From: Verrucomicrobiales bacterium
GTDB taxonomy: Bacteria; Verrucomicrobiota; Verrucomicrobiia; Verrucomicrobiales; V1-33
Direction of reading: 5' to 3'
DNA length: 64,000 nt
NCBI GenBank assembly: GCA_018003315.1
Contig: JAGNEJ010000011.1
Span: forward strand, 4,807-68,806
Shown here: piece by piece, positions 44,228-47,829 of the stretch
Position numbering within the stretch: position 1 is the first letter of the stretch
How the letters are laid out: every line of letters starts with the position of its first letter
Position numbers and translations under genes: made by a program
The notes under the pieces: model-generated
Seen by the model: only the letters and a program-made list of their open reading frames with translations
Told to the model about the DNA's origin: nothing
Databases searched by the model: none

Positions 44228-46876
44228 GTGAACCTGTCAGCGGACGATTCCTTTTCTGCGCAGTTGGCGCAGGAGCCGGACGGTCGCCACTTCCTGACAT
44301 TTCCCACCGTGCGGGGCCAGTTTTATACCATTGAGCAGTCGCAGGATGGCGCGGCTTTCGTTCCAGCACCAGGCGGGTTTTATTACGGAACCGGTGAGGA
44401 ACTGCGTTACTGTTTTCTCCACGGCCAGCCGCCTCCGCCGCCTCCACAACCACCGGGCGGAACGCCGCCGCCCAACTGGGGAAACCCGCAAACAAAACCG
44501 GCTTATTTTGTCAGTGCAGACCTGTATTTCTCCGCAGCGGGGGGCTGGGGTGCTGCGGTGGACCGGGCGGATGCCACCGCGACTCCGGATCACTGGCGCA
44601 AGCTGCTGGAGGGGACGTTTCCGCCGGCCCCGGCCGGGCAATCGCGCCTGCTGGGGTTTTCCGTGGAGGACCCGGATGCCCGCTACGATTTCCTGCTCAA
44701 TTTGCTCCACGTCCCCGCGGAGCAATTCCCGGGCGATCTGTCCGATCCGCCCTTCCTGCCGCGCCATCTGCGCGAGGCGCAGTTGCTGGAGGAAAACCTG
44801 CCGCGCATCGTGGGCGAACTGACTCGTCCCGCTGGCACCCCGGCCCCCCAGGCGCTTTCCAGCCCCAAACGCCTGCTGCGGGTGCGCCGCCAGCAGATCG
44901 ACACCAACGGCAACGGGCTGTTCGATGATTTTGAACGAACCTGGGCGGTTGATCCATTCGCTGCCGAGGGGACCGCTGATTGGTTGGCGGCAGATGCCGA
45001 CAGCGACGGCGACGGCCTAACAAACCTTCAGGAACAGACCCTGGGCACCAATCCGAACAATGCGGACACGGATGGTGATGGAGCACTGGATGGACGTGAC
45101 AGTGCCGCGAAAGACCCGACCATCACACCGCTGTGCCAGGTGGTTACCCGGCGCAGCGGCGACTACACCGCCAACGAACGGGTGACCACTGCGCCGCCTC
45201 CAGACAAGATCATTGCCACGCTCAATTGGGCGCTCACGCAGCCCGCTTCCGAAGTCATGGAAAACCCAAAGTGTTTTGACCGATTTCTGGGCACGGGGTT
45301 TGTCGGAGAAATTCCGCCCTTTGGTCCAGCATGGGTTGGTGCCCCGGCGCTGGGAGCGGTGAGCATCGGCTTGTTTCAACGGGGCGTCGGCAACCACGAA
45401 AATGGCCACTTCGAGGCGGCTCGCATCAAACTGGTGCAAAGACCTGCCCAGCCGACCCCCACCCGCGTCAGTTTCCTGAAAATCAGCCGCCGCGCCAATT
45501 TCGGTTTCACACCGCCAAACCAAGAGTGGCATGACCCGGCACTGCTCCAGCCAGGAAACCAGCTTCCATTGGATACCAGCGTCCCCCAAGCCATCGAGGT
45601 GGTGACGTTGGAAATCCCCTCCGACGTTACCGAAAGTCCCGAACTGGAGGTCAGCGGCAGTTTCACAGAGCCCATTCCCTCGCCAGAAAACAACAACAGC
45701 GCAGGCCAAAAATGGAGCTTGGAACTCACGCCGGTGGAGATAAGGCAACCTGCAATCAACTCTGAGGGCACCGTTGGAGATTTAGAAACGGTGCAGGAGG
45801 TGCGCTTCTGCCGTTGGAACAGCCCACATGTCATACCGGGGGGAGATTTAGTGCAGCCCCAGGAGTTTCCCAAAGACGATCCCGATCGCATCGTAATCCG
45901 AATGCCCCTTCCTCATAAAGCAGGCCAAGGCGTGCAAAAAATCCATGTGAGCACGAGTGGGTCCATTGGCTCACGTAACGATGCAGGGGCAGAAGTGGAG
46001 TTGACGGAACTGGCGGGACAGCTAGGAATATTTGAATCACAGCCCATCGCCCTGGTGGCCGATGAGGATGATGATAACTGGGCGGGTGGACGTGCGTCAG
46101 ATGGGGCGTTAAACGACCCCACTTTCCGGGCATGGCCGGGAGGAATTCTGAAAATTAAAGTTCCCGCTTTGCAGGATGCGGTCATCGACTTTCCCATCAA
46201 GAAATTTAGCCACCATTTCACCTGCTCCCTAGTTCATGTCGGCTCCGTGGATGCTGATGCCGCATCGGTGGCCGCCATGATTCAGAACCTGGACCGACTG
46301 CACGAAATCTACGCTCCGCTTCTTGAGAAGGTTGATTTCACCCCAGTGAACCCGGGGGTTGGAGTGCCTGCGATCTCCCCTGACGACCTACAGGCTATTG
46401 CCGGATCGGACCATCAGTTGAGCAGTGTTGAGGTGAATGAGTTGATAGCCAAGATTAATGCCTTTGACCTGCCAGCGGATGCAATCAAACTCGTCTTCAT
46501 CGACAAAACCATTACAGCCACTAGTTTCGGCACGAACCTAGCCTACAAGAATCGCTCAGATATCACTTTGTATTTTTTATCGAGTCTCATATCGTTTGAG
46601 GGGCAAAACATCACGAAGGCTGCTAATACTGTTGCCCACGAGTGCGGGCATAGTTTGCGAGGGGCGGGCCACTCCGAAACCGGAGGAATCTACGACCCGA
46701 GCCTTGGCCCGCCCTTGACAGATCCGGCACTCCCATGGTGGCACTTGATGGCCGACGGAAGGCTGGCCAATGACCTTTCCATGGATCCGCCTAAGAGTGC
46801 CAAGCATTGGTATCTGCGGGACGCCAAGATTGTCAATGAGGGTGCCGGCAACAAGTTTTCCAAGAAGCTCCCATGA
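44228..46876 (+). CDS. large Ca-binding-repeat protein with C-terminal HExxH metallopeptidase-like motif; as sequenced it lacks its signal peptide (see repeat)
   Basis: The first in-frame start is GTG 44228. Thrombospondin-type-3-like repeats are present (DADSDGDGLTN, NADTDGDGALDG), and HECGHSLRGAGH lies near the C-terminus. The upstream ATG at 44152 is one frame off. Confidence 0.6.
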   Translation: MNLSADDSFSAQLAQEPDGRHFLTFPTVRGQFYTIEQSQDGAAFVPAPGGFYYGTGEELRYCFLHGQPPPPPPQPPGGTPPPNWGNPQTKPAYFVSADLYFSAAGGWGAAVDRADATATPDHWRKLLEGTFPPAPAGQSRLLGFSVEDPDARYDFLLNLLHVPAEQFPGDLSDPPFLPRHLREAQLLEENLPRIVGELTRPAGTPAPQALSSPKRLLRVRRQQIDTNGNGLFDDFERTWAVDPFAAEGTADWLAADADSDGDGLTNLQEQTLGTNPNNADTDGDGALDGRDSAAKDPTITPLCQVVTRRSGDYTANERVTTAPPPDKIIATLNWALTQPASEVMENPKCFDRFLGTGFVGEIPPFGPAWVGAPALGAVSIGLFQRGVGNHENGHFEAARIKLVQRPAQPTPTRVSFLKISRRANFGFTPPNQEWHDPALLQPGNQLPLDTSVPQAIEVVTLEIPSDVTESPELEVSGSFTEPIPSPENNNSAGQKWSLELTPVEIRQPAINSEGTVGDLETVQEVRFCRWNSPHVIPGGDLVQPQEFPKDDPDRIVIRMPLPHKAGQGVQKIHVSTSGSIGSRNDAGAEVELTELAGQLGIFESQPIALVADEDDDNWAGGRASDGALNDPTFRAWPGGILKIKVPALQDAVIDFPIKKFSHHFTCSLVHVGSVDADAASVAAMIQNLDRLHEIYAPLLEKVDFTPVNPGVGVPAISPDDLQAIAGSDHQLSSVEVNELIAKINAFDLPADAIKLVFIDKTITATSFGTNLAYKNRSDITLYFLSSLISFEGQNITKAANTVAHECGHSLRGAGHSETGGIYDPSLGPPLTDPALPWWHLMADGRLANDLSMDPPKSAKHWYLRDAKIVNEGAGNKFSKKLP

Positions 46877-47829
46877 AACCACCTGCGACACTCGGCGTAT
46901 TCCTCAGGCTGGCGGTAGTTTTGTCAGTGCTTTGGGGATTTTTAGCAACCAATTCGCCAGCAGTGCCTGTTCCCCTGCCAGACTGGGTAAGGCCCATCGA
47001 ATCGTCCTTGCCTAAAGTAACGCCGGAGGTGATCTCGGAAGTGGACGACATTTATTTATCCATCCTCAGGAATACGGAGTATTATGAGCTTCCTGACCGC
47101 ACAGCGAAAATCCGATCCAATGTGACGCGCCTCGTCGTGCTGAGGGAGCAGGCCGACTTGGCCATGATCTGGCAATATCTTAAGTTTACCATGGGTGAAG
47201 GACCAAAATTTCCTGGGATTTTAGATGTGTTAAAAAAAGACAGGGACGTTGCGGCTAGGCTCCTCCCTATCATCCGCTTTAGAATGGAATTATTCCAGCA
47301 GGCCATCAGAGAACAAAAACTGAAAGAGTTTTTCCTCTCGCAAAAAGGCGATGTAGGTGGTGAAATAGGTCAAATGCGGAGCTACTTGATCCACCAAGGA
47401 GAGAGAGCCGATATTGAGAATCTTTATCGAATCTGTGAGGAATTTTACAAGATCGGTTATAATTTTTATCCATATAGCGAACGCCTTCCAGATCACCTCA
47501 AGGAGATGGAGGAAGTGAGGAAGCTGGGCGAGCAGGCGGATGAGCCGTATTGGCTATCGGAGGCGCAGCATTGGATTTCATTTGGCGTTCTTACTGCTGA
47601 GGTTCTCAAGACCGCACCTTCATTACCCAATACCGGCGAGGGTAACCGCCGCCCGCAGCCGCTGGGGCCCAGGCAGCCGCTCTCCCAAGGCCCGAAGCCC
47701 CTCCCTGACGAAAATCAGGAGCCTTGGACAACTCGAAATTGGCCCATCTGGATCTTGATCGGTCTGGCGGCGGCGGGACTTCTCTGGCTGTTGGTTAAGC
47801 GTAAGCCTTTGATGCACCGCCATCGTTGA
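46873..47829 (+). CDS. hypothetical protein with signal peptide and C-terminal TM anchor (cassette gene 2)
   Basis: Its ATG overlaps the upstream stop (ATGA). The N-terminus is MKPPATLGVFLRLAVVLSVLWGFLA and the C-terminus is WPIWILIGLAAAGLLWLLVKRK. The gene is ~40% GC. Confidence 0.6.
   Translation: MKPPATLGVFLRLAVVLSVLWGFLATNSPAVPVPLPDWVRPIESSLPKVTPEVISEVDDIYLSILRNTEYYELPDRTAKIRSNVTRLVVLREQADLAMIWQYLKFTMGEGPKFPGILDVLKKDRDVAARLLPIIRFRMELFQQAIREQKLKEFFLSQKGDVGGEIGQMRSYLIHQGERADIENLYRICEEFYKIGYNFYPYSERLPDHLKEMEEVRKLGEQADEPYWLSEAQHWISFGVLTAEVLKTAPSLPNTGEGNRRPQPLGPRQPLSQGPKPLPDENQEPWTTRNWPIWILIGLAAAGLLWLLVKRKPLMHRHR

Follow-up and report, generated by a model that had tools for sequence, protein, structure and literature searches.

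Polymorphic toxin systems, of which CdiA-CT/CdiI and Rhs-CT/RhsI are the archetypes, carry a short peptide at the junction of their constant and exchangeable parts, VENN in CdiA and DPxGL in Rhs. A comparable layout is found in the colicins and S-pyocins, which join N-terminal uptake or binding regions to swappable C-terminal killing domains and have the immunity gene directly downstream. Immunity to enzymes that act in the periplasm is membrane-anchored and faces the periplasm, as in the colicin M immunity protein Cmi. Contingency genes are known from 5' coding repeats with a unit not divisible by three, such as the CTCTT repeat in the signal peptide of Neisseria opa. Six KLIKK peptidases of Tannerella forsythia, which belong to different classes, are each co-encoded with a specific lipoprotein inhibitor; the region which these peptidases share is C-terminal (the signal for type IX secretion, T9SS), and the inhibitor gene lies upstream and encodes an outer-membrane lipoprotein of 98-132 amino acids (aa) (PMC9890683, PMC4404884). 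Here we describe a locus that resembles each of these systems in part. It consists of an 882-codon gene and the 318-codon gene that follows it, and lies in a stretch of 64,000 nucleotides (nt) of DNA from a Verrucomicrobiales bacterium (GenBank assembly GCA_018003315.1, contig JAGNEJ010000011.1, positions 4,807 to 68,806 of the forward strand), which is called the window below.

The class of polymorphic toxin systems is taken here in the sense of Zhang, Aravind et al. 2012 (PMC3482391), and their Sec-dependent ('T2SS', type II secretion system) class is the nearest to our locus. An earlier, sequence-only reading of this DNA had seen an abrupt drop in guanine-plus-cytosine (GC) content over the 3' third of the 882-codon gene and over the next gene, and had compared the two with the variable tip and the partner protein of a polymorphic toxin. 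Our analysis supports this comparison, on sequence evidence, for the architecture and the fold family; the roles of toxin and immunity protein are ones that we infer. We give an even chance to the interpretation that a secreted metzincin effector tip and a cognate, periplasm-facing neutralising partner make up one exchangeable cassette, which extends from the peptide LTPVEI (45725) to the end of the 318-codon gene. For this pair we infer peptidase activity, inhibition by the partner, a target, secretion beyond the periplasm and antagonism.

By sequence comparison the 882-codon gene reads as a three-part mosaic with two junctions. The first part (scaffold part A, residues 1-285, 44228-45082, on the forward strand like every segment of the two genes) comprises a small N-terminal domain (FPTVRGQFYTIEQSQDG...), a poly-Pro linker (44429-44473) and EF-hand-like/TSP3 calcium-binding repeats (44897-45094) with the EF-hand-like motif IDTNGNGLFDDFE. 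TSP3_bac (25.9 bits, cutoff 25) is the sole Pfam match in the scaffold. The second part (scaffold part B, residues 286-499, 45083-45724) is a middle domain which is homologous to the same region in other family members but strongly diverged, with 10-50% identity in a profile comparison with P0131. Both scaffold parts are of normal composition, and a search by sequence among solved structures gave no relative of the scaffold. Full-length alignment of the protein to P0132 shows 34% identity over residues 15-881.

The first junction falls at about residue 285-290 (about 45081). A search for proteins in which the same N-terminal region is joined to different tips, as the sequence-only reading had proposed, recovered P0002, P0003 and P0004, paralogues from the same or a near-identical metagenome-assembled genome, which resemble the window's protein only over residues 1 to about 290 (83-86% identity) and then diverge. 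Alignment by blastn to the L001 paralogues likewise covers 44160-45081, at 85-86% identity, and part A is delimited by these blastn and blastp matches.

The second junction, at residues 500-505, is marked by the peptide LTPVEI (45725-45742), which has the form of a tip-exchange motif L-x-P-V/I-E-V/I/F. DNA homology to the locus L003 (from the genome GCA_963204945.1, to which the locus L002 on contig CAUJJT010000060.1 also belongs) is limited to 45733-47801, with 85.6% identity, that is, to the last 383 codons and the partner gene, the upstream scaffold being too diverged for blastn. Before about residue 505, amino-acid identity to P0131, which is 99% identical to the L003 open reading frame (ORF), is 0.1-0.5, and from there on it is 0.8-0.97. 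The start of the L003 homology and the step in identity to P0131 agree with the module boundary that had been placed at the GC shift. The motif is found at the point of divergence in P0002, P0003, L001b/P0004, P0008, P0124 and L004, and P0131 has QVEV there (8 family members). The tandem paralogues L001a and L001b share 98.3% identity across the 1543 nt that lead up to an LLP(V/I)E motif and are unrelated beyond it. Five tip types are thus seen on one scaffold, namely those of the window, P0002, P0003 and P0004 and that of the distant homologue P0008. When contigs of one genome per species were scanned, neither the N-terminal region nor the alignment of the module gave a relative; a metagenome scan gave one locus only (L013), and no contig placement was found for P0002 and P0004.

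The third part of the gene, the tip module, is itself divided in two. Its first half (residues 500-658, 45725-46201) is a beta-sandwich according to the AlphaFold2 (AF2) model, in which module residues 1-160 are all-beta with a block-mean predicted local distance difference test (pLDDT) score of 36-89. This half contains the acidic cluster VADEDDD (46055-46075, residues 610-616), of which D113, D115, D116 and D117 are invariant in A1 and kept even in the distant HELLH subfamily. It is possible that this DxDDD cluster could serve as a calcium site or as a latency (aspartate-switch-like) element. The second half (residues 659-882, 46202-46876) is assigned by profile homology and conserved motifs as a divergent metzincin-type domain. 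The sequence-only reading was right to point out here an HExxH motif with a third His one residue past the metzincin spacing, the zinc motif HECGHSLRGAGH at residues 804-815 (46637-46672). A candidate Met-turn, HLM, is located at residues 839-841 (46742-46750), with M342 invariant in alignment A4.

These motifs are well conserved in the family. H-E-x-x-H-x-L and a further His are invariant in A1, and HExxH is present in all of the relatives complete enough for testing (128/128). Many relatives, for example P0155, P0196, P0212 and P0237, carry the canonical HExxHxxGxxH, and others have the third His one residue later (HECGHSLRGxGH, HEIMHILLNSxHR). Matches of 16-22 bits to Peptidase_M10, Reprolysin_3/4/5, Met-zincin, M66 and Astacin, all below cutoff, are obtained consistently for the relatives that carry the canonical motif. 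Pfam gathering thresholds are not reached, the best match of the window being Reprolysin_3 with 12.6 bits (cutoff 22.4); the window module gives no match to Tox-MPTase in Pfam, and no Pfam family covers the tip module.

The fold assignment comes from profile A3, which was built from 33 catalytic domains with that of the window as first row and has 210 positions. Compared with the PDB, this profile matches fragilysin (E = 6.7e-6), the Bacteroides fragilis metalloprotease II (MPII; 1.9e-5), snapalysin (8.2e-5), ADAMTS-5 (4.8e-4), adamalysin II (8.6e-4, over profile positions 25-176 of 210) and mirolysin (1e-3), and the next matches are serralysins and matrix metalloproteinases. In the profile alignment the family consensus LM aligns with the LMY Met-turn region of fragilysin. 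By this family-level homology the tip would be a divergent metzincin-type zinc peptidase of predicted activity, and the zincin-type domain suspected earlier can be specified as metzincin-like.

The module is widespread. A word-indexed search returned four close relatives (34-51% identity), and an exhaustive profile search returned at least 488 representative relatives at E <= 1e-3 and 195 at E <= 1e-10. In nearly all of the matches listed, in proteins of 350-2080 aa, the module is located at or near the C-terminal end, and it is preceded by TSP3 repeats, Ig-like domains, RCC1 propellers or an Endonuclease I (Endonuclease_1) domain. The extreme C-terminus of the module is also conserved (46850-46873 in the window), ending in ...KKLP, ...ETLP, ...EKLPQ or ...YVPLQ with the final Pro invariant in A1; this peptide might serve for sorting, or might be an autoinhibitory tail.

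The partner gene (46873-47829) encodes 318 aa and is translationally coupled to the module gene by an ATGA overlap, which is real, as is the layout described for its product by the sequence-only reading: a signal peptide and a C-terminal transmembrane (TM) anchor, on which hydropathy (residues 289-310) and the AF2 model (helix 287-309) agree. Between these ends we find VPVPLPDWVRPIESSLPK (46963-47016), a highly conserved Pro-rich peptide right after the predicted cleavage site, then a helical bundle of about 200 aa and the linker PQPLGPRQPL (47653-47682); the TM helix itself (47737-47796) is followed by a basic tail. The AF2 model is all-alpha with a pLDDT of 73.5. Searches of Pfam, NCBIfam, PADLOC and PHROG gave no family for the partner, and the fold search of the PDB gave no match. 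From the predicted topology, the helical domain of the partner should lie in the periplasm, with the TM helix holding it at the inner membrane.

Linkage between partner and module is strict, and the two diverge together. A partner homologue is found directly downstream of the module in 8/8 loci (L003, L004, L006, L009, L012, L013 and the fragments L010/L011), and a 4-nt overlap of the two genes is usual across loci. The identities of module and partner to those of the window track each other, with 84% and 79% in L003, 50% and 45% in L006, 46% and about 40% in L013, 42% and 40% in L012, 42% and 35% in L004, and 33% and 24% in L009, which agrees with the earlier view of the partner as cognate to the tip. 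For the module, the ratio of nonsynonymous to synonymous substitution rates (dN/dS) is 0.28, and for the partner it lies at 0.32-0.41. In L002 (8678-11075) the protease gene lacks residues from about 103 to 840; its first 100 or so and last 42 codons are kept, with 366 nt of unrelated sequence between them. The partner of L002 is nevertheless intact, with 318 codons and a dN/dS of 0.41, and a complete module-partner pair is present on another contig of the same genome (L003). The L002 partner, with the last 42 tip codons, is the one candidate case of an orphan cassette; no orphan arrays were seen.

Other tips on the scaffold are also followed by exported proteins. For each of the three other tips with readable context (P0003, P0004 and P0008; four tip types with that of the window) an exported partner is found. 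The P0003 tip (L001a) is followed by a 352-aa signal-peptide protein. The P0004 tip (L001b) belongs to a second metzincin subfamily (HELLHVLLNSPH) and overlaps by ATGA with the gene of a 151-aa protein with a lipoprotein-like signal. The P0008 tip (L014 6001-10582, GCA_031411295.1) is Pfam DUF6973 and shows a weak match (E = 0.04) to BteO (PDB 9uu0), an effector of the B. fragilis type VI secretion system (T6SS) that acts in the periplasm (PMC12541434). A 4-nt overlap joins it to the next gene, whose 285-aa product has a signal peptide, a Pro-rich linker and a TM helix at the C-terminus; this product has the same topology as the 318-aa partner and an unrelated sequence. Further downstream in L014, after the 285-aa protein, there is a 366-aa protein with a terminal TM anchor resembling that of the 318-aa partner. 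The tips of P0002 and P0003 show no recognisable family.

These data have to be weighed against an explanation which keeps the inhibitor role of the partner and drops the antagonism. In this main rival, the two genes would let the producer protect itself from its own secreted protease, one directed at nutrients or a host and not an antibacterial toxin: the scaffold would show or secrete alternative hydrolase tips that degrade environmental or host proteins, and a potempin- or AprI-like partner would shield the envelope of the producer during export. We regard this as unlikely, but as the rival to be taken most seriously. Among solved structures the tip is closest to secreted metzincins with roles in virulence or degradation (fragilysin, mirolysin, serralysins, adamalysins), the relatives of the module are carried on adhesin-like N-termini (Ig-like, RCC1, TSP3), and no interbacterial delivery apparatus was found among the domains and window genes scanned. 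The KLIKK peptidases of Tannerella forsythia offer a precedent, as their non-catalytic domain is near-identical and each has its specific lipoprotein inhibitor (PMC9890683, PMC4404884). However, tip swapping at the junction, the orphan partner of L002 and the fast co-divergence (dN/dS 0.28-0.41) are more typical of conflict systems, and the P0008 tip weakly resembles an antibacterial T6SS effector. Moreover, the partner is unlike potempins or AprI in sequence and is three times their size.

A second alternative, which we consider distinctly improbable, concerns the partner only. It would be a membrane-anchored accessory, that is, a chaperone or maturation factor, a surface anchor, or the physiological substrate or receptor of the protease. 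Translational coupling and strict co-occurrence suit any obligate two-component relation, a chaperone role was also allowed for in the sequence-only reading, and the partner, being large (a helical bundle of about 200 aa) and membrane-tethered, is unlike most small soluble immunity proteins. Yet unrelated tips are accompanied by unrelated partners of the same export and tether topology, which is expected of specific antidotes and would be less economical for a general export factor, and the L002 partner has stayed intact without its protease.

The 5' end of the 882-codon gene carries a feature of a different kind. The likely true start is an ATG at 44152, and 44152-44227 would encode the signal peptide. 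Directly after this start codon lies a tract of CCGTTCT units (44160-44193), for which Tandem Repeats Finder gives a period of 7, 4.9 copies and 100% matches. The 4 full units put the ATG out of frame (+1) with the 882-codon ORF, and 3 or 6 units would restore the MSHRSPFSVLRSITGVLTLAAGGVNLSA/DD signal-peptide reading. Homologous loci have 12, 2 and 1 units (L001 9838-9921 and about 15128-15141; L002 about 9134-9140) and are all out of frame too. P0002 carries an intact signal peptide at the same place, and P0006, P0008 and L004 start with ordinary signal peptides. What we find is therefore a perfect, non-triplet 5' coding repeat whose copy number sets the frame across homologous loci, which is the sequence criterion of a contingency gene. 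The (CCGTTCT)n tract is a candidate slipped-strand phase-variation switch, with its signature at the level of homologous loci, and the switchable expression suggested by the sequence-only reading finds sequence support in copy numbers of 4, 12, 2 and 1.

The locus also bears marks of movement. It is flanked by two inverted arms which are 90% identical over 1064 nt, the left at 42643-43706 (reverse strand) and the right at 47962-49025 (forward strand), as detected by a repeat search. The left arm holds a 347-aa IS200-like (Y1_Tnp / RAYT-like) gene (42631-43674) and the right arm a second one (47994-49037); both are intact and read outward from the cassette. They match Pfam Y1_Tnp with 38.4 and 36.2 bits (cutoff 23), and their NCBIfam REP_Tyr_transpos scores, 61 and 58 bits, do not reach the cutoff of 80. 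The first 270 or so nt of the right-arm gene also come after the partner gene in L003. Between the left arm and the scaffold gene lies a 55-codon ORF on the reverse strand (43707-43874), which appears to be the truncated 5' end of a neighbouring gene: its translation MRPHLLLIFLTIATGWVETTSL... matches over about 47 codons MRPHLLLIFLTIATGWAETTSL..., the N-terminal sequence of the GDSL-lipase/DUF7133 protein (1334 aa) encoded beside the cassette in L002. The fragment ends at the left arm, and the remainder of the lipase gene is absent from the window. DNA homology links 43732-44557 to L002 8678-9508 (85.5%), and the homology to L002 as a whole spans 43732-47938, from arm to arm. In L002 the neighbourhood differs, with the GDSL-lipase/DUF7133 gene on one side and mreBCD on the other, and has no such inverted repeats. 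Since a fragment of the neighbour is retained and the rest of it is not in the window, the unit has been relocated or rearranged along with a piece of its former neighbour. The flanking IS200-like genes may catalyse movement, or may merely supply homology for rearrangement or inversion. The inverted arms, the relocation relative to L002 and the neighbour fragment lend sequence support to the earlier suggestion of a mobile module with transposase-like flanks.

Two simpler accounts of the flanks were rejected. A simple inversion between the transposase arms does not explain the truncated neighbour gene, as the remainder of that gene adjoins neither arm, and the short inverted pair I2 (42530/47821) is asymmetric to the arms and probably a chance match, not a pair of terminal repeats. 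In L001 (14551-15051), an HTH_33 transposase-like ORF and a duplicated upstream segment of about 180 nt lie between the two tandem scaffold paralogues and form another mobile-element remnant within the paralogue array. The genes surrounding the locus in the window are housekeeping genes (two kup, an ABC transporter, recG, a CAAX protease, E1 dehydrogenase subunits and a signal peptidase), and there are no secretion apparatus genes near the locus among the genes of the window. In the NCBI annotation (locus-tag prefix KA004) the 882-codon gene is called a hypothetical protein of 737 aa, from a later start. The 882-aa product is 100% identical to this protein of a Verrucomicrobiales metagenome-assembled genome, in which the 318-aa product is encoded by the following gene.

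Taken by themselves, the frameshifted 5' end, the transposase flanks and the low GC might mark a decaying, silenced island of old foreign DNA without current function. This third alternative could draw on the out-of-frame ATG of the window and of three homologous loci, on the internal deletion in L002, on a mid-gene frameshift in L004 and on the 5'-truncated product of the NCBI annotation. We nevertheless consider it highly improbable, as the 882-codon and 318-codon frames are intact and the dN/dS values of module (0.28) and partner (0.32-0.41) point to purifying selection, and as the reading frame is shifted precisely within a perfect heptamer tract; its copy numbers of 1, 2, 4 and 12 between loci have the signature of reversible slippage and not of decay.

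Composition was the starting point of the sequence-only reading, and its three hand counts of 60-nt lines are exact on recomputation (0.733 at 44581-44640, 0.383 at 46561-46620 and 0.400 at 47281-47340). However, single 60-nt lines are noisy (standard deviation, SD, 0.07), and the line with 73% falls in an unusually GC-rich Pro/Gly/Ala-coding stretch, so that the contrast was overstated. At larger scales the drop is robust. The lowest 2-kb GC window of the 64 kb starts at 45601 and has a GC content of 0.521, compared with 0.609 +/- 0.021, which is about -4 SD. Maximum-likelihood segmentation (log-likelihood ratio, LLR, 32) delimits a low-GC segment at 45662-47632, a feature of no strand and the footprint of the module and partner cassette, with 0.518 inside and 0.616 outside; it is the top compositional outlier of the window. 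Measured against the 23 other ORFs of the window, the tip module (45725-46876) has z-scores of -3.9 for GC, -2.8 for GC at third codon positions (GC3) and -3.1 for a measure like the codon adaptation index (CAI-like), and the partner gene has -5.3, -3.3 and -4.8, respectively. The first 500 codons of the 882-codon gene are ordinary, within about +/-1.3 SD on all measures. Because GC3 and codon usage deviate too, the shift reflects more than amino-acid composition.

The drop described as abrupt is real at these larger scales but falls stepwise in 300-nt windows, from 0.69 at 44.6-44.9 kb to 0.60 at 45.05-45.65 kb and 0.50-0.56 at 45.65-47.0 kb, with a minimum of 0.43 at 47.15-47.45 kb, within the partner gene, and a return to 0.62 by 47.6 kb. 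The placing of the shift at 45.6-45.7 kb was right, as the GC change-point, the break in homology and the junction peptide coincide there. A drop in GC toward tip and partner recurs at loci of other tips. At the scaffold/tip boundary the low tip and partner GC is seen again in the distant L013 and L004, and also in L002; in L013 (Ga0114967_10010298, 1-7050) the N-terminal part has 0.54-0.61, tip and partner 0.44-0.48 and the downstream genes 0.61-0.68. It is somewhat puzzling that tip and partner keep their low GC across lineages whose proteins are only 34-50% identical. Amelioration would be expected after one old transfer; one would have to suppose ongoing exchange from a low-GC source, or selection on composition. 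The window contains a second GC outlier at 31701-32200 (GC 0.44, LLR 28; one 60-nt line has 0.28), within an AT-rich non-coding stretch of about 750 nt in 31700-32500 upstream of two tandem kup K+ transporter genes (32576-34561 and 34614-36512). Rfam gave no family at the gathering threshold anywhere in the window, this stretch included.

The weakest alternative, that the GC shift is a by-product of amino-acid and codon constraints in a vertically inherited gene without cassette exchange, is hardly credible and largely excluded by the junction data: part of the drop does lie at codon positions 1 and 2, and the same low GC occurs in the distant full-length homologues L013 and L004 as if it were intrinsic to the family, but GC3 and codon usage deviate (z = -2.8 to -4.8), the change-point coincides with two independent recombination junctions, and module and partner have about 85% DNA identity to L003 where the upstream scaffold is undetected by blastn.

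Returning to the reading of the locus as an exchangeable cassette of effector tip and neutralising partner, we propose the following mechanism. The cassette would be an effector and its antidote grafted on a Sec-exported scaffold of about 500 residues. Synthesis and export of the scaffold-tip protein would require that slippage in the (CCGTTCT)n tract bring the signal peptide in frame, and the metzincin tip would then cleave a protein target in the envelope or outside the cell. In the periplasm of the producer and its kin, the partner would bind and block the peptidase, acting as an immunity protein or inhibitor. New pairs of tip and partner would be gained by recombination at the conserved junction, and the whole locus would be movable by way of its flanking IS200-like repeats. 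More tentatively, we suggest that such loci may belong to a family of polymorphic, Sec-dependent effectors, so far undescribed, in Verrucomicrobiota and related lineages. In this family tips would be exchanged at LxPVE, each tip would have its own periplasm-facing immunity protein, tethered to the membrane at its C-terminus, and expression would be gated by the heptamer. The tips of this possible family would include two metzincin subfamilies, a BteO-like domain and domains of no recognised family. A target of a diversity-generating retroelement, an anti-phage defence system and a phage gene were also considered for the locus and rejected, as there were no supporting matches.

Several observations weigh against the effector-and-antidote interpretation. 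As the sequence-only reading had noted for Rhs/YD, VENN, PAAR and MIX, no delivery or pre-toxin domain is present: Pfam and NCBIfam searches gave none of Rhs, PAAR, VENN or markers of secretion system types V, VI, VII and IX (T5SS/T6SS/T7SS/T9SS), and only the Sec signal and TSP3 are seen. The partner has no likeness to any known immunity protein or inhibitor in the family libraries and the fold search, and no immunity proteins are listed for the metallopeptidase toxin families in Zhang et al. 2012 (PMC3482391). The zinc motif of the window is non-canonical, with the third His at +7 instead of +6 and the Gly displaced. The window sequence on its own gives only E = 0.2-0.25 to reprolysin or snake-venom metalloproteinase, and a profile of 6 sequences gives E = 0.087; significant metzincin matches were obtained only with the 33-sequence catalytic-domain profile, and the metzincin call rests on that family profile. 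The AlphaFold modelling proposed earlier gave the beta-sandwich, and its best reasonable Foldseek match is fragilysin (fragilysin/BFT, probability 0.84-0.89), but the catalytic part is of low confidence (pLDDT < 50 from module residue 286, with a 6-row alignment) and no Foldseek match reaches E <= 0.001. All four repeat tracts are out of frame, and short-read assembly of repeats can err. The cassette reading itself has to be modified: tip exchange is seen, but there is also the earlier junction at about 45081 against the in-genome paralogues, and the distant homologues L013 and L004 keep the full-length architecture with the same tip, so that the tip is not simply a recent graft.

The scaffold, the junction motif, an uncurated metzincin branch and the partner family are, as far as we could find, new here. 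To our knowledge, hardly anything is known of interbacterial weapons or secreted proteases in Verrucomicrobiota, and the locus offers a concrete, testable effector/partner pair for this little-known phylum. The scaffold and its LxPVE junction could be used for harvesting new effector domains and antidotes from metagenomes. The at least 488 uncurated representative relatives of the module have no Pfam family, and the metzincins would gain with them a large divergent branch with a variant spacing of the third His. The partner represents an uncharacterised helical, membrane-tethered family of candidate inhibitors. If the switch is true, slipped-strand phase variation of signal peptides would extend to Verrucomicrobiota, a phylum for which we know of no description of slipped-strand tracts in signal peptides. 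Should the metzincin tip be an antibacterial toxin aimed at the envelope, the locus would be a case of a metzincin toxin paired with an immunity protein of its own, of which we found no description, and a contact-independent, bacteriocin-like uptake route encoded by the scaffold would be implied.

Compared with the described systems, the 5' end of the gene is most like the contingency genes. A perfect heptamer tract follows the start codon in the signal-peptide region, and its copy number of 1, 2, 4 or 12 sets the frame between loci. In contrast to known contingency genes, all copies of the scaffold gene seen with a tract are out of frame.

The modular bacteriocins resemble the locus in layout, having a swappable C-terminal domain, a gene downstream of it and a membrane-anchored, periplasm-facing partner. 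There is no homology to them, and the scaffold has a Sec signal peptide, which colicins lack, and is without known receptor-binding or translocation function.

As with the KLIKK peptidases and their potempins, a near-identical non-catalytic region is joined in different family members to different catalytic modules, each with a co-encoded exported partner, for which inhibition is predicted here. Mirolysin, a KLIKK metzincin, is also among the matches of profile A3 (1e-3). Unlike in the KLIKK loci, the shared region here is N-terminal and the partner is encoded downstream, has 318 aa and is anchored by a TM helix at its C-terminus. The two systems are not similar in sequence and come from different phyla. 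The comparison is an analogy only.

The tip itself is closest to fragilysin, MPII and the adamalysins, the best solved relatives by family profile, with which the HExxH helix, the third His and the Met-turn align. The catalytic domain of fragilysin is preceded by a prodomain, which is comparable to the domain ahead of the catalytic part here. Here, unlike in fragilysin, the third His is at +7 instead of +6, a long scaffold carries the catalytic domain as a C-terminal module and a cognate partner gene is present; we know of no such gene for fragilysin.

The most extensive comparison is with the polymorphic toxin systems. The locus differs from them in having no recognised trafficking or pre-toxin domain (Rhs/YD, FHA, PAAR, VgrG, MIX, LXG/WXG, TcdB/TcaC, PVC) and Sec export only, in a tip that is a metzincin and not Tox-MPTase1-5, HopH1 or ALF, and in partners that are exported and membrane-tethered. 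No description of the scaffold (N-terminal domain, TSP3 and middle domain) or of the junction motif was found in the literature. However, as in these systems, a conserved N-terminal region is joined to alternative, unrelated C-terminal domains, a tip-specific gene follows immediately downstream, the junction is sharp and falls at a short conserved peptide, here LxPVE, and there are a tip of deviant composition, mobile-element genes at the locus and, in L002, a single candidate orphan partner. With its shared N-terminus, its junction, the downstream genes, the composition, the candidate orphan and the mobile elements, the locus fits the structural definition of a polymorphic toxin system.

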